Positions 5,139 to 63,365 of a DNA stretch of 64,000 bases are shown here, one piece after another; within the stretch, counting starts at the first letter, position 1; every line of letters starts with the position of its first letter. The notes beneath the pieces are model-generated. The model was not told where the DNA came from. It saw nothing but the letters and a program-made list of their open reading frames with translations, and made no database searches. Position numbers and translations under genes: made by a program. The stretch is from Phoronis australis (lineage: Eukaryota; Animalia; Phoronida). The stretch lies in NCBI GenBank assembly GCA_002633005.1, contig NMRA01000170.1, positions 406,129-470,128 of the forward strand, in the 5' to 3' direction.

Positions 5139-5216
5139 GGCTGAGTGGTGTAGTGGTAAAGTCGGCGACCCGAAACTCTTGAGGCCCGGGTTCGAAAGTG
5201 GCCTCGGTTTCCCGCC
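5139..5216 (+). pseudogene. Degenerate tRNA-like sequence / tRNA-derived SINE head
   Basis: A-box-like TGGTGTAGTGGTAA and B-box-like GGGTTCGAAAG at tRNA spacing; weak acceptor stem GGCTGAG/CTCGGTT; anticodon and T stems do not pair. Confidence 0.45.
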
Positions 5217-16977: not shown

Positions 16978-17230
16978 TCAGTTTCTGATTTTCACTGAGG
17001 CGGAATATTTTTTCTTTAATGCTTCGTATTTGTAATACTCATACGATGTCGATGGCAAAACAGTAAAGGTGCTTGATGTGCCTGAGAATGGAGTTTTGTG
17101 ACCAAACAAGGACTTGGACACCCCAAAGTGGCGTATGCGATATGTTCCTGCAGCCTGATGAGCGGGTATGTCCCAGCGAATCGTGGCAATGCTTTCACCA
17201 AGAATGGTGCTCGTTCTTTGCCATTTAAAT
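16978..17230 (-). CDS. ASAH2: Neutral ceramidase exon 16, terminal (FKW...WDIP...GTYRIRHFG...FSGTSSTFTV...stop)
   Basis: CAG acceptor, in-frame TGA at 16978-16980. Confidence 0.88.
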
Positions 17231-36032: not shown

Positions 36033-36472
36033 GACCTCTCGTTTGCTCTTTGACCTAACGAGACTGAATAATAGGTCAAGTCTGTCGAAAGGGAGAGTTG
36101 TTGGCCGCGGTGTGGGAGATTCTCTCGATCATTCGGGGACATTTTGCTTTCCTACATTGCTTGACTGTGAGTCAGTTGATATTTAATTTCCGAAATAACG
36201 TACGAGTTGTATGTTTTTGGTTTTTGAAATCTCTGTTATTTCTGTGTGAATTTTCTGACGCTGGAACTGGGAGGAAGTCGAGCTGGCACGTTGTCGTTGG
36301 TGTGCTGGCTGTATAATTTGATTATCGTTGCCCAACGTTCTACGGTTTATTCTGCACGTAGGCCAAGAATCGGGCTAAGCGTCTTGGTCATAGTAATCAT
36401 TTTACTTATGTCGAAATTTTGTTTCAGAGACACCTAGAAGACTCCACAGCGTTCAGCTGTCCACTGCTAAGA
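36033..36472. promoter_or_regulatory. Compact bidirectional promoter/5'UTR region shared by ceramidase and P4HA
   Basis: Divergent ATGs 440 bp apart; candidate P4HA 5'UTR intron from GTGAGT 36167 to TTTCAG 36427. Confidence 0.7.
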
Positions 36473-36660
36473 ATGAAGAATCTCCATGGACGTTTGTTTT
36501 TGTGCTGTGTGTGTTCCGTTTTGTTAGTAAACAATGTAAAGACAGAACTATTTACAGCGTTGATGGAACTAGAGAAAGTATTACGGGCTGAAGCTTTGAT
36601 AGCTGACGACATTGAGAATTATATTGCTCTTGAACAGGACAGGCTAAATAAATTAAAAAG
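36473..36660 (+). CDS. P4HA: P4HA coding exon 1 (signal peptide, ELFTALMELEKVL...)
   Basis: ATG 36473, donor GTAAGT at 36661; the TTTCAG acceptor at 36427 suggests an upstream 5'UTR exon. Confidence 0.9.
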
Positions 36661-39600: not shown

Positions 39601-42600
39601 GTTCAATTGATTCTCGTTTCAATACGTCTTAAAACTGAAGTCATGCCAATTTACTGAAGTTGATCCTGATATCTATGTATATTTACCCATGTGTGCTTGA
39701 TAAGCACTGGGACCATATAAATTTTACCAATTCCAATACCAACATTGCCCAAAAAACTGAACCATGTTGACAGTGTGTATCTACTTAACAACTGGAGAAG
39801 CCCTCTGACGGGCGTATTTTGGTATTTTAGATTGTTCTGCGGTTTAACCTGTTACACCTTGGAAACATCATATTCAGCTAATTATCTCAAAATTATTCAG
39901 CTTGCATAGTAAGGTTCATGTTAAGTCTCCACACCAAAAACTCCCAGATAGTCTACTAAGTTCAATTAAATTGAGTGGAGCAAATGTCCCAGTGAAAACA
40001 GCAGAAACTATGGTGAACATTCTCCGGTTTGGGACAGTGAATAAATTAATTATTCTTATACCAAATTTTAGAAATAGCCAATACAAACAATAGGCAATAT
40101 AAACAGTCTCAAATTCAAGAAATAAGTTCAACGACATGTGATCACTCTCCTTGATGTTACACTGGCCTGAAGTGTCACATCTGTGGCCATTTTGAACGAT
40201 TTTATCAATCCTGTTGATTCAAAGTGATGTGTCTGATATTTCAGAAATATGGTTTTGAATTCCAAAGTCAACCTAATTTCCCAATCTTCAGAATTAAGAA
40301 AATTCATTTTCGATATGAATTTGGATGAAACAAATTTTATACTGTCTACGTTGGAGAATTTATACCTGTCTACCACATTATTATGTGATATGTATGATGT
40401 TTGTAGTTGTTGTTGATATCACTTGGGCATTTGTGGTAGTAGTGTTTACTTATTATGTAGATATATTTGTTTTAAAAGAATGCGTAGAAAGAAATAAGCT
40501 CCCATATATTGAGATTCGATTAAGGTGAAGATTTCGTACTCCCGCAGTTAAAACATCACCGATTTAGGACACATTTTATTCGCTCATGTTTAAAAAAGCG
40601 TGCTACACCAAATTCATGAATGCATTTTACCTTGTTCAAATCCTGTGCCATGGCTGCAATTGGACAATATTTTGAAAAATTGTGAGCACTCGCTACAATG
40701 ATAGATGACTTTGAAAGATGAGTAAGGTACGTAATTTTGACTTGGATGTTTATCTGAAATTGGTGAGATTTTACCTAGGACCAATATGTACATATTACTC
40801 CCAGGATTTTACTGTATCTTAGTTTATAGTTGAATTTGGCTTATACTTGTATATCCAGACACGGATTCCAACCGTTACTACTAACTTCAATATCCCTGCC
40901 ACCTGTTAGACTGTAAAAAACAGTTTATCACTTTTCCAAGTGGCCGATTAACCGCTGGCTTTCTCATGCCATACAAGTTTTCTGCTTACATACGAGATCA
41001 TTAAGTCTGTTAAAATGCTTGATTTGTGTTGAGGGTCACCTTTAGGAGTTACACATTTTGGAAAATTGCAGTCCAGATAAATGGCTCTTGTTGACGCAAA
41101 TAATATGAATCCTGTTCTTGAAAAAATCTGACACATATCGGAACAGCAAGAAGAAAAAAATTGATGATAACTAATTTAAACAGTCGTTTTTCCAATTTTC
41201 AGAAGCTTAACGTTTTGCAGAAAAAATTCCAGTTGCTGATGACAGCAGTGGAACATAATCATGATAGCAGTGAAAAAACGTCATGTTTATTTTTGAAAAT
41301 TACCATACATGGGAATTCTTTGTTTTGATTTGGCTACTACAAGGAATGAGGAGGTAATACACATTAGTTTGTGGTAAACAAGAAAAAGGGAGGTTAATTT
41401 TCTATCACACCTCATGGTTCCAATTAAGTTACTGTAAGAATAGTGAATTGTTCATACTAGATCTCAGAGCTTTTTTGGGCATGAAAAGGTAACCAATAGT
41501 TTTGGTGCCACAGTGCTCTATGGATATCCTGATGCTTGGAAATGGCCGTCTGGCAGGCTCGCTTATGTGGGTGTGGTCAGGGGAGCCAAGAAAATGACAC
41601 TCAAAAATTGAGCTAGATCAACTTTTCTGGTAACCACTACAAACTGCCTTGGATATCTACTCCGTAATCCACTGTATCAAAATTGATCGCTGCCAGACAA
41701 TTTCAGTGGTGGGGAATATCAGCCAGACGGTTATAAACAAGGTAAAAAATTGAGCCAGATCAATCCAAGAGGTAACCTCTTGAAACCAGTTCCAAAATAT
41801 TCACCGTGAATCCAGGTATCACGAATGAACACTGCCAGACAAATCTAGTGGTGGGTTAGCCCCGCCAGACACGCCCAAATACCCGAGTTGAGCTAGATCA
41901 ACCCACCAGGTAACCATTTGAAACCAACTGCACGATGTTCAGCATCACTATACATGGCACAACTGTTAGATGCCAGACAATTTCAGTGGTGGAGTGCCCC
42001 TGCTAGAGGATTTTCAAAAAGGTTTACCCAAGAGGTATCCGCTTAAAACCAGTTCCAAATTATTCACCGTAAGCTCAGGTATCATAAATAAACACTGCCA
42101 GACTGTGGGTTAGCCCGCCAGACACGCCCAAATACCTGAATTGAGCTAGATCAACCCACGAGGAAACCAACTGCACGATGCTCAGCATCACTGCACATCG
42201 CACAACAGTAAGGTGCCAGACAATTTCAGCGGCGGGTTGTCCCTGCCAGACGACTAAAGAAGGGCTAAAATTTGAGGTAAATCAACCCAAGAGGTAATCG
42301 CATGAAACCAGTTGCAAAATATTCCACGTAAGCTCTTGTATCATGAATAAACACTGCGAGACAAGTCTAGTTGTGGATAAGCCCCGCCATGTGACAGGAT
42401 CAAATATCTAAGTTTGACCAGATTTACCTGCAAGGTAACCGTTTGAAACCATTTGCATAATGTTGAGCAACATTCTACATGTAACAAAAGATACTTTACA
42501 GACATTTTTAGTGGTGGAGCAGTAGCATGCAGAGGTTTGGTCGATGTAGGGGCGACTTTTTTTAGATGCCCCTATCTCTCTACTCAAGTGCACATATCCT

Positions 42601-45600
42601 ATTCAGGCCCGTAGCCAGCATTGAGCGGGGAATGGTTCGAATTTCAAGAATGGTGGACCTTTTAATATTTTGCAAATGTCGACACTGTAGAAATTTCAGT
42701 AAGGCCTTTGACTCAGCTTAATTAGGGGGAAGAGAACATTGTCGCATTATCTCCTGACAAAGTTTCAAATCAGCCATGCTTAAATGAGTGATTACACCTC
42801 ATTGCATACTCAAGCGGAAATATGAAGTTTAGTCGGCAAATGACTTAACAAAATTGTTTATCTGGTTGTATTTTAGCGTGCTATTTAAGTTGCTTACATC
42901 GCTAGAAATGGGAACATTCCTCTATTTTGAAGGTTTACTACTCGGAAGCTTCACTATTCCGAAGGTTCACTACTTAGACAATTCACCACTCCGAAGATTC
43001 ACCGCTCCAAAAATATCCAAACATTCAAACTCAGATGTGATTTTTAAACTTTTACATGCAAAAATAAACGATATTTCGGTAAGTAGATGCATCTACACCG
43101 AAAACAACACCCGGGCATTAAAACACCTTGGGTTTTATGTAGACAGTGACCACCGTCTCCAGCTGGCCAGCACAACTAGAAACGGTAGTCAGATTTCATG
43201 TGCATGCGAAATTGCCCACATGTCTTAAAATGAGTATGTACTTGCATTTTAAAATGATATGAAATACGAATACTGATGAATTATTAACCATTACACAATT
43301 CATCAAATCCATGTCAAGATGGAATCGCAGCGCGACGCACATGGCCAGGTCGAAACTAAACGAAGTTAGTAGGCCACCCTATCCCTGCCACTTCTCACGA
43401 AATCAGGGAGTGCCATTTAGTCTTCTTAAATTTGAAAACAGCGTTGGTCGCCGACTTCATTGTTCTTGACGCATCTCTGGAGTTCTCTGTGGGCTCGGTT
43501 TATGATAAAGATGGAGAATGCCCAAAACTGATCAGTTTTGCCAAATTTGCCATTAATCACTGTGTGAAATGATGGTAGTTGGCGCGCATACATAACGGAG
43601 ATGACAGCAAAAGACGTCATCTGATATCGATTGTTATTCATTTTAACAGTTGCATTAAATGACTCGTCCGAAAACAGAGGGACGCAGCTTAGACTGGTAA
43701 AACAGGACAACGATAAATCGAAATTCGTGCAAACACAATATGCTATCCGTCTTGGAAAGGTTTTTATGTTTTGTTTTTAGTAGTGAATCATGTGGAGTAT
43801 TCTGCTGTTTTCTCGTGGAGGTCGTGAGGTCGTTACAACATCAGGTGCGATGTTTCTGGTTTTCATGCCCTGAGGTAAACTTACAGACAAAAATCATTCA
43901 CCTTGTGTGGTAACCTATGTCATGTGGTCTAAGTGGCTTTATTAAAAATCAAATTGCCTGGTTCCTCAATGTGATGCATATTCGTTGTGAATGGGACTCT
44001 TTATTTGTCTGATTGGGGCATCTTACTGCGGTGCCACGTGCAGTGATGCTGAACATCAGATGATTGGTTTCAAACGGTTACCTGGTGCCGGTGGGTTGAT
44101 TTAACTCAACTCAGGTACTTGGACGTGTCTGGCGGGGATAACCCACCACTAGATTTGTCTGGCAGTATTTATTCTTGATACCTGGGTTTACGGCGTATAT
44201 TTTTCAACTGGTTTCATGCGGTTACCTCTTGGGTTGATCTAGCTCAACATAGGTGTGTGGGCGTGTCTGACAGGGATAACCCACCACTACATTTGTCTGG
44301 CAGTATTTATTCTTGATACCTGGGATTACGGCGTATATTTTTCAACTGGTTTCATGCGGTTACCTCTTGGGTTGATCTAGCTCAACTCGGGTATTTGGGC
44401 GTGTCTGGCGGGGCTAACCCATGACTAAATTTGTTTGGCAGTGTTCATTCGTGACACTTGTGCTCACGGTGAATATTTTGCAACTGGTTTCACGCGGTTA
44501 CCTCTTGGATTGATCTAGCTCAATTTTTTACCATGTTTATAACCGTCTCGCTAATACTCCCCACCACTGAAATTGTCTGGCAGTGATCAATTTTGATACA
44601 GTAGATTACGTGGTAGGTATCCAAGGCAGTTTGAAGTGGTTACCAGAAAAATTGATCTAGCTCAATTTTTGAGTGCCATTCTCTTGGCTCCCCTGATCAC
44701 ACCCACCAGAGCGAACCTACCAGACAGCCATTTCCAAGCATCAGGATACCCATAGAGCACTGTGGTACCAAAGAAAATAGGTTACCTTTTCATGCCCAAA
44801 AAAGCTCTGGGATCCCAGTCTATACAGGACTACGTTTTGTTGCCTGGCAATGTTTTTATTTGTCGTCAGTTGATATGTCATGTGGTTTATTAAATCTGTC
44901 TCAAAAGCAAATGAATGAGATTTTACCTCATTGCCATTTGCTTGTACTGAAGCTGAAAAGGCATGTTATTTGATGAAAGAGGATATTTTGGGATGCTGGT
45001 ATAATTTGTAACTTCTCAGCATTGCTGTCATATTAATGATTACATGTTCAATTTGACTGCATTTTTGCAACATTGGCACAGTTTTATTGTGATGGTCATA
45101 TATTCCACTGTACATGAACTTTTTCCCGTTAGTAACAAATTTTTTCTCAGACTACCATTTTGATATCAATTAGTAAAATATATATTCAAGTCATATTTTA
45201 CATATAAAGAATAAAATGCCTATTTCAAAATAGATCATGTCTTTATTTTGGCAGATGGCCCCTACATTTTTCTTGAAGGTCATACATTTTTTCTTGAAGG
45301 TCAAATACACTCTCCAATCCTGTGGGAACCTTGGGTACTGTATTTTCTTTTGAAGATAGTATTCATTCAAGTGCAACAGTTTGGGTGTATAAAATAAAGT
45401 TTTCAGTGAACTAAATGATTTCAGACAGAATAAAACAATGCACTTGACATTTTAGTGGCAAAATGTCATTATTTAAATTGCCTAGCTGATCAGCACACAA
45501 CCTCTACCAACTCATTTCAGTATAGCGGAGGACTTCCACAATCACAGCCAGAGTGCACTTGCTGACCTGGACCATCACCTTGGCAACCCAGTAAATTCCT

Positions 45601-48600
45601 ACCTCCTTATCAAAAGATTTACGCGGGACTGGGCTCAAGTAGAAAGTCTCATTCGCGATGGTCCAGTTGTTGGTAATGTATAGTATTCTTTTACTATCAT
45701 ATCAATACTTTTAGTATCGTACTCTTTCACTTTCGCATTACAAGAGGTTTCAGGAACTTAAATATCCAAAACATCCGAGATTTGAGTCCCACTTGTTCAT
45801 ATTCTTTATTGACACAAAACTGCACTACGTCATCATGATGTGCTGAAATTGACGATGCTCACACCTACTCTTAGCCAGTCACCTAGCTGTAGACTAACTT
45901 CAAAATATACCTAAGGAACGATGCCTGTCAATTTTAAGTTTGTTTCAGATTTCATTCTGCCTCCCACATTGTTCCAATGTGTGTGTGTGTGTGCGTGCGT
46001 GCGTGTTAGTCGTACAGTTTGGCTTCAAGACTAACCTGTTCCGAGTCATATCTTGGTACGCCGTAGGCGAATACGTAGTTGTCTCTTCAGTTCAGTAATT
46101 GAGATGTAGCCCAAGGTTGTGTTCCATAGGCCCACTGAATATGTTTGCAGCACTTGTGATAAAAGTTCTTGATTTATACCACAGCAATAGTGAGTTCTGT
46201 CTCATAATTTATGAATTCTTTCATTTCCCATAATTCAACATTCCAGCTTGACCAGCCAATCATTTCATCGGCCACCATTTGGTTAGGATAGGCCAGGAAG
46301 CATGCTACTGAAACACACTTGATATTGAGGTCTTGAGACAGCTTGTTTTTTTCAATACATACTTGGTCTAAAAATGCTAACCAGGTCTCTCCCGTATGAA
46401 CCCTTCGGTACCCTTTAACTCTGTTACTACTTAGTCCAAAAATGCACCTTATCTTTCCTAATTAACCCAAAAACACTCATCTCATTTGTATTCATTATTC
46501 AGTACTATGCACAGCTTAGTATCATAATTATTTATTATGAACATTGTGTATTCACCAAATTTTGTTACATCTTTGTATGCGTACAGATTGATCTGAAATC
46601 TGCATGTAGAATTTCATAAATTGCAGAAATACAGTGGCTCACAATGTTTAATGAGCTCATTCATGATAATTTTTGAACAAATGAAAATGTTTGAATATTG
46701 AACTGTATCGGCCATCTCCAGATCTGTTGACCACCATCGACCAGAGGCGTAAGAACTTCCCCACTGAAGATGACTTAAAGGGTGCTGCCGCTGCCCTACT
46801 ACGGCTCCAAGATACGTACCAATTACCAGCAGAGAAGATTGCCAATGGTGACCTACAGGGGGTCCAGATACACACGAAGCTATCTGGTATGTGTACTTGT
46901 GGTCTCTTGAAAATGACATGTATGTAATAAGCAACGCTTTCGCCGAAGCATTCTTTAGTTGATTGCACTTGTTTTATTCTACCATGCTCAATGTTTGATT
47001 GTTAATTAAAGTTTTAGCACTAATGGAAATGTTATTGTCTGTTTTAAATAGATTTTGCTGCTGGCCAGTATTTACAATTTACGTCATCTTAGTATTGCCC
47101 GAAATCCAGAGTGCCATGCTACGTAGCAACTCTGTAATATGTGCCACAACAGCGCCATCTTTTGAAACGGTTAACTGTATCTCAAGAGACATGTTGCCTG
47201 AGGCCCACTGCCATAAACCTGTAGCCAAAAGTGGGCCTTCCATCAAAAAATGTAAGACCACTTACTGCTTTGAAATTTGCCTCATTTCTTTCCTTGCTAA
47301 AAGTGCAACTGTACTGTTTTCTGGGCTTTTGATAACACTTGCTGTATAAGTTGGCTTATCATGGCATGTGCCGAGCATGGTCTCAACCAAACTTAATAAT
47401 TTCAGATTTGTTTTTACGGCTTGTAAAATAATGACTTGTTAAGGACTAGGTTTTATTTTACTTGAACTTTCCGTATTTTTTTCCTGCATTTAATGATCAT
47501 ATATATTTAATGTCGCAATGCATGTGGAGTGCATGCAGTCATTAACAATAGATTAAATGTCTAACACTTGTGCATGACCAAGTGTACTTTTGGTTTTGCA
47601 CTGTTCAGTAGATACAGAGTGTGAGAGTAGTTGGGTCGCCCTTAATGTTGAGAACGACTGACGAACTACAAAGTATGTCTTTGGATTAATAAAGATTACA
47701 GCGTTTTTATTAAGGAACATGACTATTGTAATGTCGCTTGATTAAATGTAACCACCTGTTCAGTACACTGTTGTCAGCTTAAATTATAAACAGGGCGAGT
47801 GCGATGGGAGGGGCTCATTTCTGTGAGCACGCGTGTTATGTGAACCCTGGGTAACTGCATACCCTGGAAGATTTGTAGTCTAAGGGTTTGGTGAGCTTTC
47901 AAATTAGAATCAACATTACTGGATATATCTACAAGAGATAACTCCTGCAGGTCTACTGAGGTTCACCCTGATGCGGAATTTTTCGAGATTGTTTTGAATG
48001 TATGGCTCATGTATGGAAAACGTGTTCAAGATGTAATTATTTTCACAATTTTTGTTGCTTAAAATGAGTCTTGAAATATGTGAAGTTGGTTTCTTGCCAA
48101 CAGAGGCATTGTTCAAGGTCTCTTACAGCAACTTTGTTATCATCAGAGTGAATCTTCACTTATGCAACATGTTTTAAAGTTCACGGCTAAATGAGCCGCT
48201 GCAGTCAGAAATACATGTTTCCAAAATAACCCCCCTCTTTTTATGTGGAAACAACTTTCTAAAAGTGGTTTGTGTTTTCCCAGCAATAGTCATGAGTGAT
48301 GCGCAATATATTTCACGTGTCTAACCGATCTGTGAACCAGTGATTTATACCCCAAAATTAAGCTGACTGTTGAAACACCATTACTCTTGTCGTGATTTCT
48401 TTTCAAACTCTGCTTTAAGGCTTTTATACCAAAATGGCGGAATGGCATACTTGGTTCTAGTGTGTACCTCACTCATTTTGGGACCTGCCCCTAACTGTTT
48501 AAATAATAAATAAGCATCTGCTTACATCACTTTTTTCAAAGTTACACATGGCTTGACAACTTAACGATAACCCAACCTCCGTGGTCAACTGCTCCCCACC

Positions 48601-51600
48601 CGTTGACGTTGGTAAGCACTGCCAATCGCTTGTCACTGGACCACTGAAAATGGAAATAAAATCACGCACCACTTCAGTTGTTGTTGGGTGACCTTCCTTG
48701 AGAAAATGTATGAGTAAAAAAGACCGTATCACCTCATCAATTCCCCAAGAAACACAAACCAAAACCAGTTGTTATTTGGCCAAGGCATTAACTCACATCT
48801 TGTAGGCTTTAATCTGTTAACAGCTATGTCTGTTGCATGCTTTAGCTGTGGAGTGTTACGAGATAGGCAGGTCAGCATACATTACCGGCGACTACTATCA
48901 TACAATACTGTGGATGGAAGAATCGCTCGACCGCATCCGGGATGAGGTGAATCGTACTGTTGACGAGGCAGACATTCTTGATCATCTGTCCTACTCAAAT
49001 TTCCAGGTGAGACATTGGTGATTGTCAAGGTATGGTAGAAGTAAGACACGGATTCAATACGATGACTATATGCGACCACGTGGATGGTGTCATGTTGTGA
49101 ACTGTTGTGTTTATGCACTCGGGTTCATAGGGGCATGGAGTAAATGTCAAAAACAACAGATACTCTACTTTTTTCAGTGAAATGCTATCTTGTTATTATT
49201 TTTGGTGCAAGTTGTTAGGTACTGAAAAGGTTTCCGACAGTTGTCTGGTGACAAATTTTTAATACTGCTTAAGACACACAGATTCCATGGCTGTTGCTTC
49301 GTGATTTCGTATCCTGGCTAATTTTTCAAGATATCTATGACTTTTTGGTTGTACCCAATAGGATTTTTTGTCAGGTGTAGTCAAAACGATGCCAGGCCGT
49401 GAAGCTGTGACGTTGTAGTAAAACATCCCCATAAATTTTTTTGTTGTTTACTCATGTTAATCCTGCTGCTTTTGTGGTTGGAATGAATTTTCCTGCTCGT
49501 TGGACTGGCAAGGTAGGTCAGTGTGTTTAGATAAGTCTAGTCTCTCTGTCAAATCTTACTCTATTGTTGATAACGGTCAAACTCTGTCAGTGATTGGCTA
49601 AGGTAAGTTGCATGAGCATGGATCCTGGATGCGCAGCACTTCATAACGCCTGGACGCTTGAGAACAGACCCTGATGTTCTTGGAAAACTAGGTTTGCCTA
49701 TGTCGGACTACTTTTATAGCGGAGGAGTGTTACGAGCTTGGACGGTTCGCCTATACGAATAAAGACTACTATCATACCATATTGTGGATGGAAGAGGCGC
49801 TGGATAAATTCGAGAAGGAGGTCAACAAAACAGCAAATAAAGGCAACATTGTTGATCATCTGGCCTATGCGCATTCAGTGGTAAGCACAATAAAGGTCCT
49901 TAGGCATTCACGGATGATAGGGTCAAAAGATGCAGTACGATGGCTGGCATTTTTCAGCAGGTGACGGAACAGATCTCTAGGATGCTTAAGTCTCGGTATT
50001 TGCTGCACGATATAAGCTGAGTGTGGTTTTTCAGTTTGGATTATTTTTACTTCTTTTTCACCTCCTTATCTTTCCCTAAGTGAGCTCCTCAAAACACAAC
50101 ACAATTATTCTACCTGTGGTTGTTGTCTATGTGCTCTGTTTATCTTTAAAATATTGTTCAAGACTGAAACTATTTCGGTAGTAATAGTAACTTAGTTAAC
50201 TAGCGGTAGTCATGGTTCACCTCAGTGCGTAGTGTTGATGTTAGGTCACCAGATCCGTTCACACCCTCCACGCACTCGTGTATAACAAAAAATACACATT
50301 GGTTTGCTTACTATATTGCATTTATGCTGAATTTGTGCTTGTGTAATTTTCATCATCAGGGCGCTTTGTTTTGAATTAAGGACTAATGTACTAGGTATAT
50401 AATTGTTATGCACCCACATATTTATATGTGGTCGCATTATGCCATCATCTTTGTCCCTCCATCCGGGCGGCGTCTGTCCAGCGTCCGTCGTCCGCTGCTC
50501 TATCTCCAAAACCGGTTGACGTATGTTTATGAAATTTTGCACGTGTTCCTTTCATGGATGGGACAGCATGAGCAAAGTTTCAGACGGATCCAACTACCAG
50601 TGTGCCCCCTTGTGGCAATTTTAGTTTTTTACGTTTACCTCTGTATCTTCAAGGTCCTCAACATATTTTCACAAAATTTGGTATATAGGCATTTGTTGGT
50701 GAATGTGACTTCAGCTACCTACAACTATTGGACTGTTCTGACTACTGTTGCACCCCCTAGAGGCAATTTTAGTTTTTAAGTTAATTTGCATCTGTAACTT
50801 TACAGTTCTTTGACAGTTTTTATTGAAATGTGACAAACAAGTTTATGTTATGATGGTGATCTATTCATTTTGGAATGGATTTGACGTATTCTGTGCCACT
50901 TAGTATCCATTTTTGATACTAAGAAACACCCTTGAAGCAAACTGTTTGTATTGCTGTCGTGCGCGCATTTCAGCACTCTGCATTGCTCTTGTGTTTTGTT
51001 TTTCTTGCGTCCACGGCTGTATCTCGTTAACTCCTTGAAAGGTCTTGTGTGAAATGTGGTAGATATGTCCTTATAGAGATGATAATGGATGAGAACGAGT
51101 TTCAGACCACAGGTGTACCCCTAGTGGCAGTTTTAGTTTTTTACGTTTGCCTCTGTATGTTCTTTGATGTATGTTTCTGAAATTTGGCAAATAGGTCTCT
51201 AGTAAGGCGACAAATATGCCTTTCTATTTTTGGACAGGTCCAACGTCACCTAGTGGTCATTTTTATAGTCTTTAGTTTGTTTTTGAGCGTCTGCCAAACT
51301 GCTCAAAAGATCATTATGAATCGTAGCAGTTGTGTTCTTGGTGAGAAGACCATGGCTGACATTGATTTTTGGACGGATCTGACACCCGTGGCGTGCTCTT
51401 GGGGTGATTTTTCATTTTTTGAGACCATGGCTATAGCTCCTTGATTCCTTTACATGATGTTTGTGAGCTTTTGTATGTGTTTTCCTGTAGATGTGACAGT
51501 GGATCTCCATGACGTTTTGGAGGGCTCTAGCTGACTACCACTATGCCCCCCCCCCCGGTAGCAATTTCATTTTACCTTTACCTCTATGTCTCTTCTGAGT

Positions 51601-54600
51601 TCCTTGATGTTTTTAATGAAATTTGGAGACAGGTGTCTATTATAACAATGGCAGCATCTTTACAATTTGTTGAATTTGACATATTCTGCGCCACCTAATG
51701 GCCATGTTAATTATTTCTGAGTCTGCTTTTTGCCGCTTGCTTCTGTATCTGCCAAACCGCTCAGAGGACCATTATGAAAATTTGCAGATATGTTACTGCT
51801 GACATGGGAATGACTTGCATAGATTTTTAGATGGGTCCAACGTAACTTTGGTGCTACCTAGTGACATTATTTTGGCATCTGCGTCCCTTGCAAGATCGCA
51901 ATTTGTCAGGTCTATTCGTATTGACATCAGATGGATGGATTTGACTCCTGCTATTCCCTATAATGGCAATTTGTTTTTTTACGTCTGCCTCAGTCTGTAT
52001 ATCTGGAGTTCCTTGGTAGATTTTCATGAAATTTGACAAACAGTTTTGTAATAGAAAGATGACAAGCTTTTTCCCCGTGTATTCTCCACGAAAGTTGCAG
52101 GTCAGCTAACCAAAACCCACAGGACACCTGACCGTGAAAGTCAACAATACGGGTGTTATGTGTCGCTAGTCAACAAATGTGACATCCCTCTACTGCTAAA
52201 GTGAACCTTGACTGGTATTTCAAGTCAACAAAAGTCAAAATTTAGGTGGAAGCAAGTCTAATTCCTAATAGTCACTTGCACTCATAACACTTCTAAAGCC
52301 CACAGCTCCTCTACTTTTTTCCAAAGAGCTCCCTTGGGGCTTTTTGTAAATGCAAAACACTTCGGAGAAAATTAGAATTTCCAAATTTTGGGAAATCCCT
52401 GGCAATAGTTGCCAGTTCCCTCCAATCTGTTGCTTTAAATAAACATACTGTCATTTGAAATGCGGGTACTGAAAGTAATTGCCTTCTTTAATATTCAGCT
52501 GTTCATATATTAATTAAGATGTTGGTATTATAAAATAAATTTTCGAATGTTGTAATAAAGCTTTCATAGAAGATGGTGGTAATAAAGAAGTCATGATATG
52601 AAATTGCTTAGTAAATTAATTTTTCTGATTTAAATGGAACGCAATTGCTTTGGATGCTATGTTTATTGATATGAATGGTCCAGTGAAAAGTCTGCATTCA
52701 CTTGTATTGAGCAAACACAATGTCCTACAAGTTACTGAACACAGTCTGTGTTGGGTAATTTGTATTTGTTCCATGAATTAGTGAATGCAGAACTAAGATG
52801 CTGGTATTTAGCTGAGCAGCAGGAGTTCATCGGGGATTTCAAAAGTAGAGTTTCCAAAATGGGTTTCCCAATTTTCAGGGCATCTATCACCAATGACCAG
52901 TGACTATTAAGCTTTTATGATGTCGAGTCAAACTGCTGTTATAGTGTAGTATCTTACTGTGGTGACATGGTTGGGCACTGAAAGTTTTTGTGTCTTACAT
53001 TACTTCTATTCTCGACTGGCCAATGAGTCCTCAGAGCTGGTGCTAGCGTGTTCAGAGACACTCGTGCTTTTGCTGACTTTACTTGGGTGTCCAAATGCTG
53101 AACAGGATGTCCTAGCTTAGATGTCTGAATTTGAACCAAGGTGTGTATTTGGGTCCCCTAGACACTCTGTAGCTGAAGGCTTCATTGCTGAGCAGTTGGT
53201 GTGTTTTATTTTTTGTTCATTGAGTAGCAAGTACATACCAATGGAACTATTAAACGGACAATTTCCGTCCGAGAAAACAAATAATTTTTATTTTGTTCCC
53301 TTTAATGATCAGTATTTCGTAAAGAGTATTTTTTCTTTACAGCAAGGAAATGTTAGAAAGGCTCTGGTTTTGACCGATGAGCTCCTAACTCTTGGTAAGT
53401 GGCACTGTTCATGTTATGACAACATCGAATAGTTTATTTAAGGTTATGTGGGACCTAATCGACAAAACTACATGTGCCCAAAGAACTATAGACTTTTACT
53501 CAGTAAGAGTATACGTTCTATGCTAGTAGAAATTCCATAGAATTTGATTTCTGGCTTCATAACTTTTTGCCATTGAGTCATTTGATCTTACTTTTTAGTG
53601 AAATTTAGTAAAAAAATTAATGGTTCATTCTTAGCATAACAACAGGATCGATAACATTTACCAAATTTTGTGTGAATTGCTATTAATGTTCAAGATAAAA
53701 TTATGAAAGCACTGCTACTAGAAGTTTTCTAAGTGATTGTTTCATTTTCATTTTATGCAACTTTAAAGTTTTTTTTCTGTTTTCATAAAAGTCATACAAG
53801 TCCTTTTTTGATAGCCCTTCATGCAAAAGTGGAACATTTAAAGACAATTGCTAACAGCTTTTTAGAGAACTGTGCATAAAGCATAGTACTTGAATGTTTG
53901 TTCTTGATCCAATAAACAATTTTGAGATATAATGTTCCAATATTTGGTAAAAAATTGGAATTTTTCTAGGGTCCTACATAACGTTAATAACCTGTATGTT
54001 GTCCAATTGCTCACGCTAATTAATAAATGTATTATGTTCTCACTCAATGTAAGGCACTTTTATCTTGGATTTGATTATCAGTGACAGTTTTGTGTTTGTA
54101 TAATTTGTTATATTGCAATGATGGTGACTATGAATGTTTGTGTTGTAATAATTGCTGCTAAGAAAGCATCTTTTGTGTGGGCCCCATAATGCAATATTGA
54201 CTGAATTGTATATAGGGCTTCAGGGAGTATACACTAGACATTTACACATAAGCCGTTATCACTGATCTGAATGGACTTTTCCAAGTGTGGGTCATGAAAC
54301 AAGGCAATTAGGTCTGATCAGTTTGTGGAACTGCCGACAGACAATCAAATCAGCTGATATAAATTACTGCTATCTCCCACAAAACTTGGCCAATTTTTGT
54401 GGGGAAAAAGCTCTTTTCCCAAACTTTTTGAGGAATTCAAATGGGGGCTTTGTTTCCATCCACAAATAAGGCGAAAAAAGAATTCAAACATTTTAATTGT
54501 TTGTTCTACTCATATCTTAATGTTGTCGTATGAAAGTACAATATAGTGTAATCTAAGGGAAGGACTTGTGGTTTTCTGACCATCCAGAGTTGCTTGCCTG

Positions 54601-57600
54601 CCAACTCCAGACCGACCATCAGTGCAATGTAATGCTATGCAATTTCTAAATTTGCGTGTGGATGATAGGTAGAGTTGTAATTTTTCTGTCATTCGTGGAT
54701 AGCTAGCGACGTTGGAATTCTTGTGTGAATCACTTGGATTTCCCACTGCACAACAGTGGCAATTTAACGACCGGACATGGCAGTTGAACAAAAAATCATA
54801 AAAATGGTGGGAATTTTACAGAGTTAGGAGCGCAGAATGCTGTCCACCGACTATTCTGCCACCATCGAGTGACAAGACATTTATCATAACATTGCTGCTG
54901 GATCATGAAGTGTCTATTGAGGACAGTTTGGCTGTGGATTTTGTTTGCTTTGTACCCAGTTTTGACGCAACTGACTTGGCCTTGTATATGCACTTCTTAA
55001 TTTTTAGTATTTTCTGTGTGTCTTTTGATTACTAAAAGCAGGAAGAGATAACCAGGAAGGGACAACTAGCTAAACCGCCGTTTTTGGCCTCCTTCCCCGG
55101 ACTAATTTCAGGACTTAAGTTTCGTTTAAAAGGAAACAGATGATTTTATCAGAGAGATTTAAGCTTTTTCTATAGAAGGATATCAAAAAACTCGCTTTTC
55201 AACCTTAAACAGTGGTGTAATTGTACTTTGAAAATATCGACTTCAGCGCACGCAATCGCAATTTCCCACACGCAGTCACGGGTATTTAAGCTTTTCCGTC
55301 GATGTATAGATGGCGCAGTAGTCAAGTACTACCTCATTTGCATATCAAATTTGGATGTGGGAGTTCTGTAACCTGGTTCCCGGGCCTCACAAGATGACGT
55401 CACGGATAACTCGTGGGTCTGTGTAGGAGACTAGGAGTTCTGAGACTCCCGTCAGTTTAGTTGTTGTCGACCGCTTGAGTGCATAAAGCGGTGACCTCCC
55501 GCTGAGAGCACGCGCTGATGAAGATACCACAGCTAACTCGATCGCTTCGCAATCAGGAGGTGAAAACACTCTCATGACCGCAGTTCTGAATTCCAGCTAA
55601 GCAAGCCCTATTTCGAGGAGCGGATTTGAATTGTTTTCGTCCCCAGACTGTGGATTGCAGAGAAGATTAGAATGAGGTCAACATTGAACTTTCTGCGGCT
55701 ACCTATCGTGTTGANATTTGACAAACAGTTTTGTTATAGAAAGACGACGAGCTTTTTCCACGTGTATTCTCCACGAAAGTTGCAGGTCAAGTAACCGAAA
55801 CCCACTCGACACCTGACCGTGAAAGTCAACAATACAGGTGTTATGTGTCGCTAGTCAACAAATGTGACATGCCTCTACTGCTAAAGTGAATCTTGACTGG
55901 TATTTCAAGTCAACAAAAGTCAACATTTAGGTGGAAGCAAGTCTAATTCCTAATAGTCACTTGCACTCATAACACTTCTAAAGCCCACAGCTCCGCTACT
56001 TTTTTCCCAAAGAGCTCCCTTGGGGCTTTTTGTGAATGCAAAACACTTCGGGGAAAATTAGAATTTCCAAATTTTGGGAAATCCCCGGCAATAGTTGCCA
56101 GTTCCCTCCAATTTGTTGCTTTAAGTAAACATACTGTCATTTGAAATGCGGGTACTGAAGGTAATTGACCTTTTTTAATATTCAGCAGTTCATATATTAA
56201 TTAAGATGTTGGTATTATAAAATAAATTGTCGACTGTTGTAATAAACCTTTCACAGAAGATGGTGGTAATAAAGAAATCGTGATATGAAATTGCTTAGTA
56301 AATTAATTTTTCTGATTTAAATGGAATGCAATTGCTTTTGATACTACGTGTATTGATATGAATGGTCCAGTGAAAAGTCTGCGAACACAATGTCCTACAG
56401 GTTACTGAACAGTCTGTGTTGGGTAATTTGTGAATTAGTGAATGCAGAACTAAGATGCTGCTATTTAGCTGAGCAGCAGGAGTTCATCGAGGATTTCAAA
56501 AGTAGAGTTTCCAAAATGGGTTTCCCAATTTTTCAGGGCATCTATCACCAATGACCAGTGACTAGTAAGCTTTTATGACTTCGAGTCAAACTGCTGTTAC
56601 AGTGTAGTATCTAACTGTGGCGACATGGTTGGGCACTGAAAGTTTTTGGGTCTTACATTACTTCTATTCTCGACTGGCCAATGAGTCCTCAGAGCTGGTG
56701 CAAGCATGTTCAGAGACACTCGTGCTTTTGCTGACTTTACTTGGGTGTCCAAATGCTGAACAGGATGTCCTAGCTTAGATGTCTAAATTTGAACCAGGGT
56801 GTGTATGTGGCTTCCCTATACACTCTGTAGCTGAAGGCCTCATTGCTGAGCGGTTTGCGTGTTTTATTTTTTGTTCGTTGAGTAGCAAGTACATACCAAT
56901 GGAACTATTAAACGGAGAATTTCCGTCCAAGAAAACCAATAATCTTTATTTTGTTCCCTTTAATTATGAGTATTCTGTATAGAGTGTTTTTTCTTTACAG
57001 CAAGGAAATGTTAGAAAGGCTCTCGTTTTGACTGATGAGCTCCTAGCTATTGGTAAGTGGCTCTATTCATGTTATGACAACATTGAATAGTTTATTTAAG
57101 GTTTTGTGAGACCTGATCGACAAAACTATATGTGCCCAAAGAACTATAGAATTTACTCAGTAAGAGTATACGTTCTATGCTAGTAGAAATTCCGTAGAAT
57201 TTAATTTTTTGCTTCATACCTTTTTGCCATTGGGTCATTTGATCTTACTTTTTAGTGAAATTTAGTAAAAAATGAATGGTTCATTCTTAGCATAACAACA
57301 GGATCGATAACATAACCAAATTTTGTGTGAATTTCCATTAATGTTCAAGATAAAATTACGAAAGCACTGCTACTAGAAGTTTTCTAAGTGATTGTTTCAT
57401 TTTCATTTTATGCAACTTTCAAGTTTTTTTCTGTTTTTGATAGCCCTTCATGCAGAAGTGGAACATTTTAATGGCAATTGCTAACAGCTTTTTAGAGAAC
57501 GGTGCATAAAGCATAGTACTTGAATTTTGAGTTATAATGTTCCAATATTTGGAAAAAAATTGGAATTTTTCTAGGGTCCTACATAACGTTAATAACCTGT

Positions 57601-60600
57601 ATGTTGTCTAATTGCACACGCTAATTAATAAATGTATTATGTTCTCACTCAATGTAAGGCACTTTTATCTTGGATTTGATTATCAGTGACAGTTTTGTGT
57701 TTGTATTATTTATTATATTGCAATGATGGTGACTATGAATGTTCGTGTTGTAATAATTAATGCTAAGAAAGCATCTTTTGCTTGGGCCCCATAATGCAAT
57801 ATTGACTGTGAATTGTATATAAGGCTTCAGGGAGTATACACTAGACACTTACACACAAGCTGTTGTCACTGATCTGAATGGACTCTTCCAAGTGTGGGTC
57901 ATAAAACAAGGCAATTAGGTCTGATCAGTTTGTGGAACTGCCGACAGACAATCAAATCAGCTGTTATGAATTACTGCTATCTCCCACAAAACTTGGCCAA
58001 TTTTTGTGGGGAAAAAGCTCTTTTCCCAAACTTTTTGAGGAATTCAAATGGGGGCTTTGTTTCCATCCACAAATAAGGCGAAAAAAAGAATTCAAACATT
58101 TTAATTGTTTGTTCTACTCATATCTTAATGTTTTCGTATGAAAATACAATATAGTGTAACCTAAGGGAAGGATTTGTGGTTTTCTGACCATCCAGAGTTG
58201 CTTGCCTGCCAACTCCAGACCGACCTTCAGTGTAATGTAACGCTATGCAATTTCTAAATTTGGGTGTGGATGATAGGTAGAGTTGTAATCTTTCTGTCAT
58301 TCGTGGACAGCTAGCGACGTTGGAATTCTTGTGTGAATCACTTGGATTTTCCACTGCACAACAGTGGCAATTTAACGACCGGACATGGCAGTTGAAAAAA
58401 ATCATAAAAATGGTGGGAATTTTACAGAGTTAGGAGCGCAGAATGCTGTCTACCGACTATTCTGCCACCATCGAGTGACAAGACATTTATCATAACATTG
58501 CTGCTGTATCATGAAGTGTCTATTGAGGACAGTTTGGCTGTGGATTTTGTTTGCTTTGTACCCAGTTTTGACGCAACTGACTTTGCCTTGTATATGCACT
58601 TCTTAATTTTTAGTATTTTCTGTGTGACTTTTAATTACTAAAAGTTATTGTCTCCGTCTCCATGAAAATTGAATGTGGAGAAGGAATACACCACGGAACC
58701 TTGTTGATCTCGAATTGTGATATTACATGAAATATTTACCGGGACATCATTGCGTATAATTTATTTATTTTGAGCTTGGTAAATTCTCACCAAATTAGGA
58801 CACAAGATGGCAGTTAAGTGGAGCATTTCTTTATTTTATTCATTACAAGATGTGCCAAATAAATGCTTCTAGTGCTAAGAGTTCATTGCCATATCTACAT
58901 TAAAATGACGATGTCTTGAAAAATATTGTAGACGTTCACATCTGTTACAATGTTAGAAACCTTTGAAAAGTGAATGACTGTATGCTTCTAGTTCTTGAAT
59001 ATCGAGGTCATATTTATTATTTTTTCTACGATAGTATAAAATACTCTTGGTGTGGTGAATGCATTTACTACATAAGTGACTGGAAGAAAAACTGAGTGTG
59101 CAATGATCGTTATAATCTGCTATGACTGATGTCACAATTTCGGTACGAAAGCCATAATTCTTTCAGTTCCCGACCATGAAAGGGCATTGGGAAACAAACG
59201 TTACTACGAAACAGTCATTGCACAGCAGGAGGCACAAGCGGAAAAGAAAGGAGATGACCTTCCAGTGGAGACAAACCAAAACAAACGGCAACTGGACGAG
59301 TACAGGAACTCGCAGGAGTTTTTCAACTATGAATCGTTGTGCCGAGGGGAAGATGTTATTGTGAGTCTTTGAAACTGCTGAGTGTTTTTTATATGTTTTT
59401 TGGTCTTCATCTGCCATAATTTTCATGTTTAGACTCCTGAGTACTGTAGTCCTCAATTTTACACAAAATAATGCTGAAATCGCTACCATTTTGCTAAGAC
59501 CAAAGTTTTACCAATTGAAAGCGAATGCTTCTCTTTATAACAGTGTGCAGTACAACTGATGCTCATAATCATGTAAAAAATCAGTGTTTCTTTTTGAATT
59601 TGTCAAATTAAAATTACAGTTCTTTGCCTAATTGTCTGCTAAGTTGTAGAGCATTTCCATTGGAAAGGAGTTAAACACTTTTGATATCTGTACTGAATTG
59701 TATCACTGTGACTGTCTCCATCAGCCCAACCCAGACGTTCACAAGCTGAAGTGTTTCTACACACACAAGAACAATCCCCGACGCTACCTGAAGCCGTTCA
59801 AGGAGGAGGAAGCTTACCTCAACCCACGAATTGTTGTTTTCCATGATGTCATCACTGATGCTGAGATAGACCTGGTGAAGAAAATGGCGGGACCCCGGGT
59901 AAGCAGACGTCACGTGACATAGCTGTTGTAGACGTGCTGTCAGTTGTTAGCAGTTGATAGACGTAAACGTTGTTTTCATATTCCTGGTTTTAAGGCTTCT
60001 GCAGAATTCATCTGTTGCTGACTCTATAAACTGTATATTAACTGTCTGTATTTTGTATCCTAAAAGCTCAGACTTGCTGTATTTTATCCATTGCTAAAGA
60101 GTAACTATTAGACCTCACAAAAGCAATTCTAACTAGACAGCACTGAGTCATAACTTGTAATGTTAGACTGTTTACACATACACGCATGTCAGGCTTATGA
60201 TCGAAAATAAAACAAGACTTGTTTGCCTTTGAAGCTTCACTTTAAACCAATGACGTGTTGACCTGTAGTTGGGTGTGCAGTCTAACTTTTGACAGTTGTG
60301 GTTTTCACAACTATTAGTTTGACAATGTTTCATTTTCCTAAATATAAGTTCAATTATTTACATCCCTTATGACGTATTTGCAAAAACAAATGTTTTATCT
60401 TCAGGACATCCATTGTTTGATAAAAGTAGTGTAATCTCATTGATTAACATTGACGGACTTGTTTTTTCTTTGTTTTGAAGGTCATAATCTATAAAAAATT
60501 GTCATTTCCTGGCTTTTAAAGTTCACCAACAATCATATACGTATAACATGTAATATGACATTTGAAACAAAAAGTTGTAGATTGTAATAGTTTGATATTT

Positions 60601-63365
60601 CCCTCTGGATACAGTGATGTAGTAATGTTTAGTGGTTATTATTCTCAAAGATAAGTTGTAACCTACTTTGTCTTGACACTTCTTGCACCAAGCTTTAAAA
60701 CATTTTTTCAGCTTAAACTATGCACAGACGATGAGTCACTAGTCTAGGTATCTGCGTCAAGTGAAAGGTGGTTACCTGCAAACAGCCAGAAAAAATACTC
60801 AGTGAAACACGCCAATTTGGCTAGTTCTTTCAGTTGTTTTCTAATTTTCGCTCCTTGGATACATTTTGCCATGTGCCTCCTGTTTACTACATAACCTCCT
60901 CTGAATGGTGTCGTGATAATTTCGCATGAGTGAATGGTCATATTTCATCGGTCAGTGAAGCTTATCAACCAAGCTCTGTGCAGCTCATCTCACCCGCCCA
61001 CTGTGAGGATTTGGACGCACTTGTTAAGAAATCAAGCACATAGTCTACTTTCCTCACCGCCTTGTGAGGAAAGATGCTCCCAGTTCACTTAGGGGCAGGC
61101 ATGAGTTATTACCTGGTACACACATTTGAGGTGGATGACTCTCTGTCTGAGCCTAGCTTTACAGACTCTCTGTCATTTTTCATCTATTATTCATTATAAG
61201 TATTCTTCCAGCTGAACCGTGCCACGATTCAAAATCCAACTACAGGAAAACTGGAGTTTGCGCCGTATCGAATCAGTAAGAGGTAAGAACAAAGTATGAG
61301 TTAAGGAACCCTTGCGTGTAGACTTATAGGTGCTTGAGGTCCCTAAGTGAAATATTGGAAGTATGTATACTCATTTGATTTCATAACTTGGACGGTTTTT
61401 CTTACCTCAACCTCTTACCTCAACATAAAATTTTTGACACACTGTGTGATGCTGCCTGACTAAAAATAGATAGCAGGCAGTCATTAGACATACACAGGCC
61501 TCATAGGTCGGGCCTATTGTACAAAACACCTGATTTGGATCTCACGAGAACCCTCATGTGTATATTGTGACAAGGTTGTTCTTCCTGAGAGCAGTTGCAA
61601 AATCTGTAGACGGGTAGGTCACATTCATCTGCTATTGGTGGTTGGAATTTGAACCGAGTTACTGTTTACAGATAGAATCCACAACCAATATCGTTTCTGC
61701 TTGTCTGGTCATCTGACTTGACTACCTGAATGTTTCCATGTATGCAGTTGTTACATTATTTCTCAGGCACCACAGTGAGAAACTTGCTGTAAATAATCCC
61801 ATTGTGGATTCAAACAGATTTTTACTATGAACAATTTTGCACTGGGATACAAATTGTGGTGGGATTGTCAGTCCCAGCATCTATACCAGGATTATTCTGG
61901 AAACATTTATTCATTAGTTTGCTGGGTTTGATTGTTTAATCCACTGTCGGAGCATGCGTGATATTACTCTGCCTTTTGTGTTTATTGTCTTTCTGATATT
62001 ATCATGTCTTGGCCACTTAATTATCTGTTCTGACACTGGGTACATTTGTTCTGATAACAGGGTGCAACATAACTTGCTGGGATTTTTTAATAGCACGGGA
62101 CACAACCGATTAAGGAAAATAGTTCCGGTAAGAGATTCATGCAAAATGACTAGGATTTTGAAATATTGGGAACACAGCTTTTGTGAATTTTGAACTAGCC
62201 TTTGTCTTTGGTTCTCCAGTTTATGTAAGAGTGGGTTATTTTTCCCTGACTTGGGTTCTTGCATTTTGTGTTGTCAGTGCCTGGTTGAAGACTTATGAGG
62301 CACCGTTCCTTGAAACTCTAGAACAGCGTGTTGCCGACTTCACACAACTCAACATGGAGGTGGCTGAAGAACTCCAGGTATGGCGATGACTGGTTTCAAC
62401 TTAATTTGCCCCCGTATTTTCATCAATAAATAAGGTGGACAATTATAGATATTAAGCAAATTTTAAACACTTTTTCATAATCATCATATAAAACATGGTT
62501 CATTACATTAAAATCTCAATTATTTGGCAAAAAAGCCAAAATAGCTTTGTCATTTTTCAAAATTTTTAACCTTGTTATGAATGCCTGCAATTTTTCAAAA
62601 TATTGTCTTATGATAGTTTAATGGAAACAGAAAAGTAAAGCAATTTAGTTTTTTGCTAACTTATCAATTAATGAAAAAATGAGACCATTAAGCTCATATA
62701 TCTTTCCATGTTGCATCCAAAATTGGGGAGATTTTACCCCATTCCCAAAATATGAAATTAATGTATTTTCTTTAATTGTATTGCAATTGAGTGAAAAATT
62801 CATTCAATACATTTTCTTCCCTGATACAGACAAAAATTCTTAATTGTGTACAGTGTGTCTTTAAAAGCCATGTTATTGATACCTTTAACTTTGTGATTCA
62901 AGCTGCTTGTACCATGTACACTTTTAGGTTGTCAATTATGGGATTGGTGGCCATTATGAACCGCACTATGACTTTGCAAGGGTAAGTGACTTGTGTGTTT
63001 AGTTTTGGGGGGCATGTCCGTGCTCCATATGTTAACCATTGCGTGAATATGAACCTGGGGTAGACTCGCTCCAGTTTGTGTCACAGAAACTTGAAAATGT
63101 CATCCTTTTTACTTCTAAAATGTCATGGCGTCATTGTATTTGTTTGAAAAATTCATGGTTCACCTGAATCAAATTTTTGAAACGTAGTCAAAGTGAACTA
63201 TATATGAGCTGGAATACCCCTTGTAAATGATTCATGTTTTGGTTGACATGAGCCAGGCCACTGCCCTTTAAGTGCATAGAACCTCTATAAACATGTCTCA
63301 GTGTTTTGTAGGTAGCCAATTATGGAATTGGCGGCCATTATGAGCCTCATTTTGATCACGCACGG
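36473..63365 (+). CDS. P4HA: Collagen prolyl 4-hydroxylase alpha subunit, 5' portion (437 codons visible; gene continues past the window end)
   Basis: GT-AG exons join in frame: signal peptide + ELFTAL, HLGNPVNSYLLIKRF..DW, FPTEDDLKGAAAALLRLQDTY, TPR-like substrate-binding domain, YESLCRGE, FHDVITDAEI, RATIQNP..G.LE.A.YRISKSAWL, AEELQV.NYGIGGHYEPHxD. Paralog number (1/2/3) cannot be assigned. Confidence 0.95.
41456..44819. mobile_element. 3.4-kb foldback element with arms built of about 139-bp tandem subrepeats, in the first P4HA coding intron
   Basis: Left arm (41456 to about 42520) is the reverse complement of the right arm (about 44030-44819); GAGCTAGATCAA/TTGATCTAGCTC recurs every 137-142 bp. 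Confidence 0.88.
42931..43012. repeat. 16-bp minisatellite (AGGTTCACTATTCCGA-like) x5 inside the foldback
   Basis: Direct reading. Confidence 0.65.
45521..45672 (+). CDS. P4HA: P4HA coding exon 2 (HLGNPVNSYLLIKRFTRDW)
   Basis: CAG/GTAATG, 152 nt. Confidence 0.92.
45978..46006. repeat. (GT)n/(GTGC)n microsatellite
   Basis: Direct reading. Confidence 0.85.
46722..46886 (+). CDS. P4HA: P4HA coding exon 3 (FPTEDDLKGAAAALLRLQDTYQL)
   Basis: CAG/GTATGT, 165 nt. Confidence 0.93.
48846..49006 (+). CDS. P4HA: P4HA alternative exon 4a (AVECYEIGRSAY...ILDHLSYSNFQ)
   Basis: TAG/GTGAGA, 161 nt, phase 1 to 0. Confidence 0.9.
49720..49880 (+). CDS. P4HA: P4HA alternative exon 4b (AEECYELGRFAY...IVDHLAYAHSV)
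   Basis: TAG/GTAAGC, 161 nt, same phases as 4a. Confidence 0.9.
50405..52060. mobile_element. Old Helitron/Helentron-like non-autonomous element with a degenerate internal tandem array (about 130-160 bp units)
   Basis: Head TTATGCACCCAC..GTGGTCGCATTATG followed by a CGTC-type microsatellite, then about 10 degenerate units containing GCCCCCTAGTGGC-like cores and TGAAATTTG; family assignment is inference. Confidence 0.55.
53343..53394 (+). CDS. P4HA: P4HA coding exon 5, copy 1 (QGNVRKALVLTDELLTL)
   Basis: CAG/GTAAGT, 52 nt; lies inside the duplicated 3-kb block. Confidence 0.8.
55039..55714. mobile_element. Insertion present only after copy 1 of the duplication (probable polymorphic transposon end, cut off at the contig join)
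   Basis: Copy 1 reads TACTAAAAG|CAGGAAGAG... and copy 2 reads TACTAAAAG|TTATTG...; the segment is more GC/CpG-rich than the flanking intron. Confidence 0.5.
57001..57052 (+). CDS. P4HA: P4HA coding exon 5, copy 2 (QGNVRKALVLTDELLAI), probably the other allele
   Basis: CAG/GTAAGT, 52 nt; 4 nt differences from copy 1. Confidence 0.75.
59167..59360 (+). CDS. P4HA: P4HA coding exon 6 (PDHERALGNKRYYE...YESLCRGE)
   Basis: CAG/GTGAGT, 194 nt. Confidence 0.93.
59725..59898 (+). CDS. P4HA: P4HA coding exon 7 (LKCFY...PFKEEEAYLNPRIVVFHDVITDAEI)
   Basis: CAG/GTAAGC, 174 nt. Confidence 0.93.
61212..61282 (+). CDS. P4HA: P4HA coding exon 8 (LNRATIQNPTTGKLEFAPYRISKS)
   Basis: CAG/GTAAGA, 71 nt. Confidence 0.93.
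62278..62377 (+). CDS. P4HA: P4HA coding exon 9 (AWLK...AEELQ)
   Basis: CAG/GTATGG, 100 nt. Confidence 0.92.
62928..62981 (+). CDS. P4HA: P4HA alternative exon 10a (VVNYGIGGHYEPHYDFAR)
   Basis: TAG/GTAAGT, 54 nt, HxD iron-binding motif. Confidence 0.92.
63312..63365 (+). CDS. P4HA: P4HA alternative exon 10b (VANYGIGGHYEPHFDHAR)
   Basis: TAG/GTAAGT, 54 nt, HxD iron-binding motif. Confidence 0.92.

Follow-up and report, generated by a model that had tools for sequence, protein, structure and literature searches.

On the + strand of the window, a stretch of 64,000 nucleotides from Phoronis australis, lies a collagen prolyl 4-hydroxylase alpha (P4HA) gene, of which the 5' three quarters are included. 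Its head-to-head neighbour on the - strand is a neutral ceramidase gene (~17000–36035; Pfam Ceramidase_alk). The starts of the two genes are ~440 nt apart (36035–36473), and a promoter is probably shared between them. A long single open reading frame with WSC and sulfotransferase domains is found at 10446–12089 (-). Members of the P4HA family work as alpha2-beta2 tetramers with PDI and hydroxylate X-Pro-Gly sequences.

Transcript evidence comes from four RNA runs labelled Phoronis australis: X1, which consists of contigs from one study, and X2–X4, raw paired reads from one other study, 18–19% of each run having been read (read counts are given below in the order X2/X3/X4). Coding exon 1 (36473–36660), with the signal peptide and the start of the N-terminal domain, is placed by its open reading frame and donor site and lies outside the RNA coverage. 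Constitutive exons 2 (45521–45672) and 3 (46722–46886) are joined by 53/40/6 reads and by an X1 contig. Exon 5 (57001–57052, 52 nt) is joined to exon 6 (59167–59360) by 44/36/13 reads, and exon 6 closes the peptide-substrate-binding (PSB) domain, carrying the equivalents of human positions 223, 227, 230, 231, and 233. Exon 7 (59725–59898) is likewise seen in RNA; an apparent 59360–59728 joint was rejected as a splice form and reflects a sequence variant at the start of this exon. Exon 8 (61212–61282, 71 nt) encodes the hairpin loop and leads into constitutive exon 9 (62278–62377, 100 nt) in 45/31/17 reads. All these exons are on the + strand, as are two exon pairs: 4a (48846–49006) and 4b (49720–49880), which encode helices of the TPR-fold PSB domain, and 10a (62928–62981) and 10b (63312–63365), which encode the catalytic loop with its His-x-Asp motif. 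Pfam scores above cut-off for P4Ha_N on exon 3 and for TPR_P4H on both 4a and 4b; the N-terminal dimerisation domain is thus followed by the TPR-fold PSB domain, with PDB matches to human PSB-I/II. The positions of the distal His and of the 2-oxoglutarate Lys are beyond the window. Intron 1 contains two inverted copies of an element (41460–42470 and 44017–44814) with internal repeats of ~140 nt, and the intron after 4b contains a highly transcribed repeat family (50260–50910), which draws very many partial RNA reads, mostly of one strand.

The original prediction had described the two pairs as tandem homologous exons with intact splice sites, and their coordinates, lengths, phases, splice sites, and location in the PSB domain and at His-x-Asp, respectively, all hold. 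Exons 4a and 4b have 161 nt each, AG..GT ends and 105 of 161 nucleotides in common (65%); 10a and 10b have 54 nt each and share 41 (76%). No stop interrupts either pair, as had been claimed, and each of the four single-choice combinations keeps an open frame of 437 codons up to the end of exon 10. Inclusion of both 4a and 4b leads to a stop at codon 286 and skipping of exon 4 to a stop at codon 173, and such frameshifted transcripts would be removed by nonsense-mediated decay, backing up exclusivity. Double inclusion of 10a and 10b stays in frame, and exclusivity of this pair must therefore act at splicing. With dN/dS values of 0.32/1.40 for 4a/4b and 0.11/1.73 for 10a/10b, both pairs are shown to be old and to have diverged under purifying selection. 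The flanking introns, as predicted, are not alignable beyond short motifs (the observed score was reached by 86, 38, 0, and 7 of 300 shuffles for the four flank pairs).

A scan of 36000–64000 with each exon peptide finds duplicates of exons 4, 10, and 5 only; no second exon 8 was found in the window. The copy of exon 5 (53343–53394, against 57001–57052) had been overlooked in the original prediction of two tandem pairs, which stands for exons 4 and 10. It lies in the first copy (52027–55038) of a 3-kb tandem block with 92.5% identity to 55712–58644, and a single N at 55715 immediately precedes the second copy. The same signature is seen in a 1.9-kb block at 31584–35333, 95% identical and with a single N at 33455. 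Most reads fit the exon at 57001–57052, the letters of the first copy being present in 0 of 50, 0 of 44, and 6 of 19 reads (X2, X3, X4), and the 6 of 19 in X4 are compatible with one allele (test against one half, p = 0.17). A third exclusive pair at exon 5 was rejected on the likeness of the introns (92.5%), the N at the join and the second block of this kind. The exon 5 copy is probably an uncollapsed haplotype, i.e., a false duplication, and the block at 31584–35333 is probably another.

All four junctions expected for the pairs (46886–48846, 46886–49720, 62377–62928, and 62377–63312) are seen in reads. Exon 3 is joined to 4a in 31/51/3 reads (85 in total) and to 4b in 1/3/4 reads (8 in total) and one X1 contig, in which exons 2, 3, 4b, and 5 follow in order. 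The joints onward to exon 5 have 24/30/3 reads from 4a and 0/2/8 from 4b, the latter again with the X1 contig. Neither a 4a–4b nor a 3–5 joint is present among the best 15 of 29 joints. The share of 4b is 2–6% in X2 and X3, and reaches 12 of 18 junction reads in X4. On the upstream joint 4a and 4b are found 82:4 in X2+X3 vs. 3:4 in X4 (Fisher p = 0.0008), the 4b counts being small (18 junction reads in X4) and all contrasts of X2–X4 lying within one study. Exon 4 is thus shown to be a regulated, exclusive, and sample-dependent choice.

The choice at exon 10 is of another kind. Exon 9 is joined to 10a in 48/32/11 reads (91 in total) and to 10b in 17/18/3 (38 in total), and reads continue from 10a into exon 11 in 46/35/12 cases and from 10b into the same exon 11 consensus in 17/18/4. 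Beside these 129 exon 9–10 reads, a 10a–10b joint is absent from the complete set of eight joints with at least three reads. Both pairs hence behave as mutually exclusive exons, sharing their flanking exons and having no pair-internal joint among those listed, as had been foreseen. The 10b share is steady at 21–36%, with no difference in 10a:10b among runs (p = 0.41), which shows exon 10 to be a steady mixed choice. This share may be inflated because some 10b reads are variant (other letters at 63317 in 8 of 25, 4 of 25, and 0 of 10 reads in X2, X3, and X4) and 10–15% of exon 9 reads look paralogous. Read ends after 10b (63366 onward) agree with their consensus at 0.80–0.89, vs. 0.86–0.99 after 10a; the cause could be paralogs, a second exon 11 or intron retention. 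Steric hindrance between 10a and 10b is unlikely to enforce exclusivity: the intron that separates them is 330 nt long, and 69 nt upstream of 10b it has a branch-like motif. A candidate RNA helix, in which 62719–62746 (+) pairs with ~63050–63079 and loops out 10a, perhaps helps. Its predicted energy of -27.6 kcal/mol was reached by 4 of 229 shuffles, and it was the best of four region pairs tested. For splicing control by competing RNA structures (docking/selector), in which one element pairs alternatively with two partners, this one helix and no clear competitor were found, and the helix is a weak, nominally significant candidate.

The choices at the two pairs are not strictly coupled. Strict coupling is rejected in X2+X3 (p = 2e-6), and the rejection holds at p = 0.003 without 16 variant-bearing 10b reads. 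With 4a at ~95% in X2+X3, the 4a-10a form must account for 65% of transcripts or more and 4a-10b for 26% or more; the latter bound is 15% without the 16 variant-bearing reads. Both of these forms consequently exist, forced by the marginal shares. The point estimates in X4 imply 4b-10a and the data suggest that this form exists too, with few reads behind the estimate (p = 0.016 for both joints, 0.16 for the upstream joint only). No marginal share in X2–X4 requires 4b-10b. X1 has no alignment on the downstream exons, and its 1526-nt contig carries no coupling information. The predicted 2x2 set is borne out in part: both pairs are expressed and not strictly coupled, and two combinations are forced, but its fourth member, 4b-10b, has no reads that require it.

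Some reads point beyond this gene. About 10–15% of exon 9 reads have other letters, and the read ends before exon 9 are unlike exon 8 in 11 cases in X3 and 6 in X4; no better match to those ends than exon 8 itself (3 mismatches to the degenerate pattern) was found in the window. Read ends at 62276–62377 contain two different exon-8-like sequences. These variant sequences hint that P4HA paralogs are expressed from other places in the genome.

The residues encoded by the alternative exons can be placed with the human P4HA1 numbering of the available part of the PMC8373072 supplement and the pockets described in the accessible portion of PMC12433258. Exon 4 carries human PSB positions 158, 192, 193, 196, and 199. 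Tyr158, Asp192, and Tyr196 are kept in both 4a and 4b, and both have His at 193; position 199 is Phe in 4a and Ser in 4b. Human Tyr199 forms part of the P5 proline pocket (PMC12433258, in part), and among 199 mostly arthropod proteins all 159 motif-matched sequences have Tyr or Phe at this position. The tyrosines whose mutation is reported to raise Km are 193, 196, 230, and 233, and Tyr199 is not among them in the portions of the sources at hand. Exon 10 corresponds to P4HA2 residues 418–435, of which Tyr421, Tyr427, His430, and Asp432 belong to the catalytic site (PMC9676403, in part) and have their equivalents in both 10a and 10b. Three of the 18 residues differ between the two copies (Val/Ala at 419, Tyr/Phe at 431, and Phe/His at 433), and none of the three is catalytic. 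In 179 matched homologues position 433 is Phe in 177 and Tyr in 2.

Tandem exon-4 copies are also present in other animals. A scan of metagenome contigs gave 192 confirmed P4HA loci, of which the best 80 were compared, their splice forms being read from DNA alone. Four of the 80 (L024, L038, L051, and L065) have tandem exon-4 copies in the same phase. In the first three the first copy is aromatic at 199 and the second is not, as in the window; L065 is aromatic in both. Copy b of L051 contains a stop and is truncated by the end of the contig; L051 is also closely related to L038. In 56 of the 80 loci, all of them small-intron, intron-poor or spliced records, the stretch from exon 3 to exon 6 or 7 is covered and has one exon 4; the remaining 20 do not cover it. 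L001–L004, which are small-intron loci, have a single exon 4 with a non-aromatic residue at 199. In a representative search (143 scored matches) such a residue was found in 31 of 66 intron-bounded exon-4 fragments, including some single-copy small-intron genes. A gene's sole exon 4 can therefore have a non-aromatic 199, and this state does not necessarily imply weak binding. Its seeming near-restriction to intron-bounded fragments (31 of 33 vs. 35 of 110) is confounded by intron position and was given no weight as proof. Trees of 48–53 columns group neither a with a nor b with b, and the window copies are sisters (98/74). One ancient origin of all a/b exon-4 copies is neither supported nor rejected (all-b clade, AU p = 0.19), and recurrent duplication of exon 4 is the simpler reading.

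Other exons are multiplied as well. L038 (3257–11631) has two copies each of exons 4 and 5 (the latter at 4669–4720 and 5154–5205), three candidates for exon 8 (7834–7904, 8437–8513, and 8703–8776) and three for exon 11 (11025–11081, 11207–11266, and 11569–11631). The extra candidates have AG..GT ends and matching phase, the hairpin-loop exons being strongly diverged, and up to 36 splice forms are predicted. Exon 8 is paired in four small-intron loci (L005, L013, L021, and L036), and exon 11 in L043 (1946–2161), a locus ~73% identical to Daphnia P0106. In the Trichinella model P0200, which consists of two fused P4HA halves, each half has two consecutive exon-11-like segments. None of the best 80 of 192 loci has an exon 10 pair, and in 15 groups of arthropod isoforms neither exon 4 nor exon 10 is substituted. 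When single exons served as query, word-seeded protein searches gave almost no matches. Judging from these loci, P4HA may be a hotspot at which tandem exon duplication has recurred in invertebrates, mostly concealed in sequence without annotation.

On balance we lean toward a reading in which the gene makes its enzyme with 4a or 4b and with 10a or 10b, the exon 4 switch tuning the grip of the PSB domain on proline-rich chains and exon 10 only fine-tuning the active site. The exchange of 4a for 4b likely changes the hold on substrate. With Ser in place of the aromatic wall of the P5 pocket, the grip of 4b on long (X-Pro-Gly)n or polyproline chains would be weakened or redirected, and Km or processivity would change in consequence. 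Exons 10a and 10b would adjust the surroundings of an intact iron site with all catalytic residues kept. A tetramer with PDI is expected, and mixed-isoform tetramers would be possible.

The exons of each pair might instead be real and regulated yet nearly equivalent, both kept for the fold and with little effect on catalysis. The three non-catalytic differences between 10a and 10b, the conservation of Tyr158, Asp192, and Tyr196 in both exon-4 copies and the single-copy genes with a non-aromatic 199 are in keeping with this, but synonymous sites are near saturation while both copies are intact, 4a/4b use shifts about tenfold between samples, and three other loci show this asymmetry at the pocket too, so that we consider near-equivalence rather unlikely. 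More doubtful still is the proposal, made in the original prediction, that four splice forms stand in for P4HA1/2/3 and give specificity for collagen type or X position. In its favour are the uncoupled choices at a binding exon and at a catalytic exon, and the end of exon 10, which adjoins the betaII–betaIII loop. Vertebrate X-Pro-Gly preference, though, is ascribed to the hairpin and betaII–betaIII loops (bioRxiv 10.1101/2023.06.28.546674, in the part available), and the 2x2 set is therefore weak as a mimic of paralogs. These loops and the Tyr233 pocket of PSB-I, as far as the accessible text describes them, all lie outside the alternative exons, in exons 8, 11, and 6, and the window has one copy each of exons 6 and 8. 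Constitutive exon 6 encodes Thr at position 233, and the unmatched read ends before exon 9 suggest real paralogs; the claim is not supported. That the exon 4 and 10 pairs are assembly artefacts or dead copies, as the haplotype-like tandem blocks beside single Ns (33455, 55715), one duplicating exon 5, might hint, is practically excluded, as the pairs are only 65% and 76% identical, have unalignable introns and no N, and the splicing of all four exons in RNA refutes it.

Natural and regulated PSB variants on one catalytic domain, differing at the proline pocket, offer a ready-made test of this domain. A wider proposal, which we put forward tentatively and would not yet bet on, is that many invertebrates have repeatedly made one P4HA gene combinatorial, in that as many as five substrate-contacting positions have interchangeable exons (36 possible forms in L038), and that the 'b' PSB exon is a pocket-less switch setting collagen hydroxylation by tissue or stage. 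If true, the recurring 'b' exon would reveal the PSB domain's function.

Alternative splicing of P4HA, known so far at two loop exons, is here seen in the binding domain and at the active-site strand as well. Neither a PSB-domain nor a His-x-Asp exon pair is described in the open full-text literature searched (most subscription papers lie outside it), and the same pairs were not found described before. The available parts of PMC8373072, PMC9741552, PMC4165533, PMC7954323, and PMC9189910 contain no such pair, and P4HA names are absent from those of PMC4165533 and PMC7954323. The isoforms may already be present in automatic gene models of related species. New are the PSB exon switch, the Ser of 4b at the P5 pocket and the tandem exon-4 pairs in other animals. 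Human P4HA1 exons 9a/9b (9/10) belong to the same family and are likewise tandem homologous exons used one per transcript; this pair is dated to Bilateria (PMC8373072, in part) and regulated by hypoxia (PMC11868403, in part). The exon concerned is the 71-nt one for the hairpin loop; its homologue here, exon 8, has one copy in the window. Human P4HA2 exons 12a/12b are of the same family and splice type, and alter the betaII–betaIII loop in the exon after His-x-Asp, i.e., exon 11, outside the window. The pairs described here thus differ in position from both human pairs, as had been predicted (PMC8373072, available part of the supplement). Vertebrate C-P4H-I and -II, with PSB-I and PSB-II, similarly provide two versions of the peptide-binding domain per animal (PMC12433258, in part), but there, according to the same portion, the versions come from paralogs and are distinguished chiefly at Tyr233, whereas here they are made by splicing and differ at position 199 of the P5 pocket.
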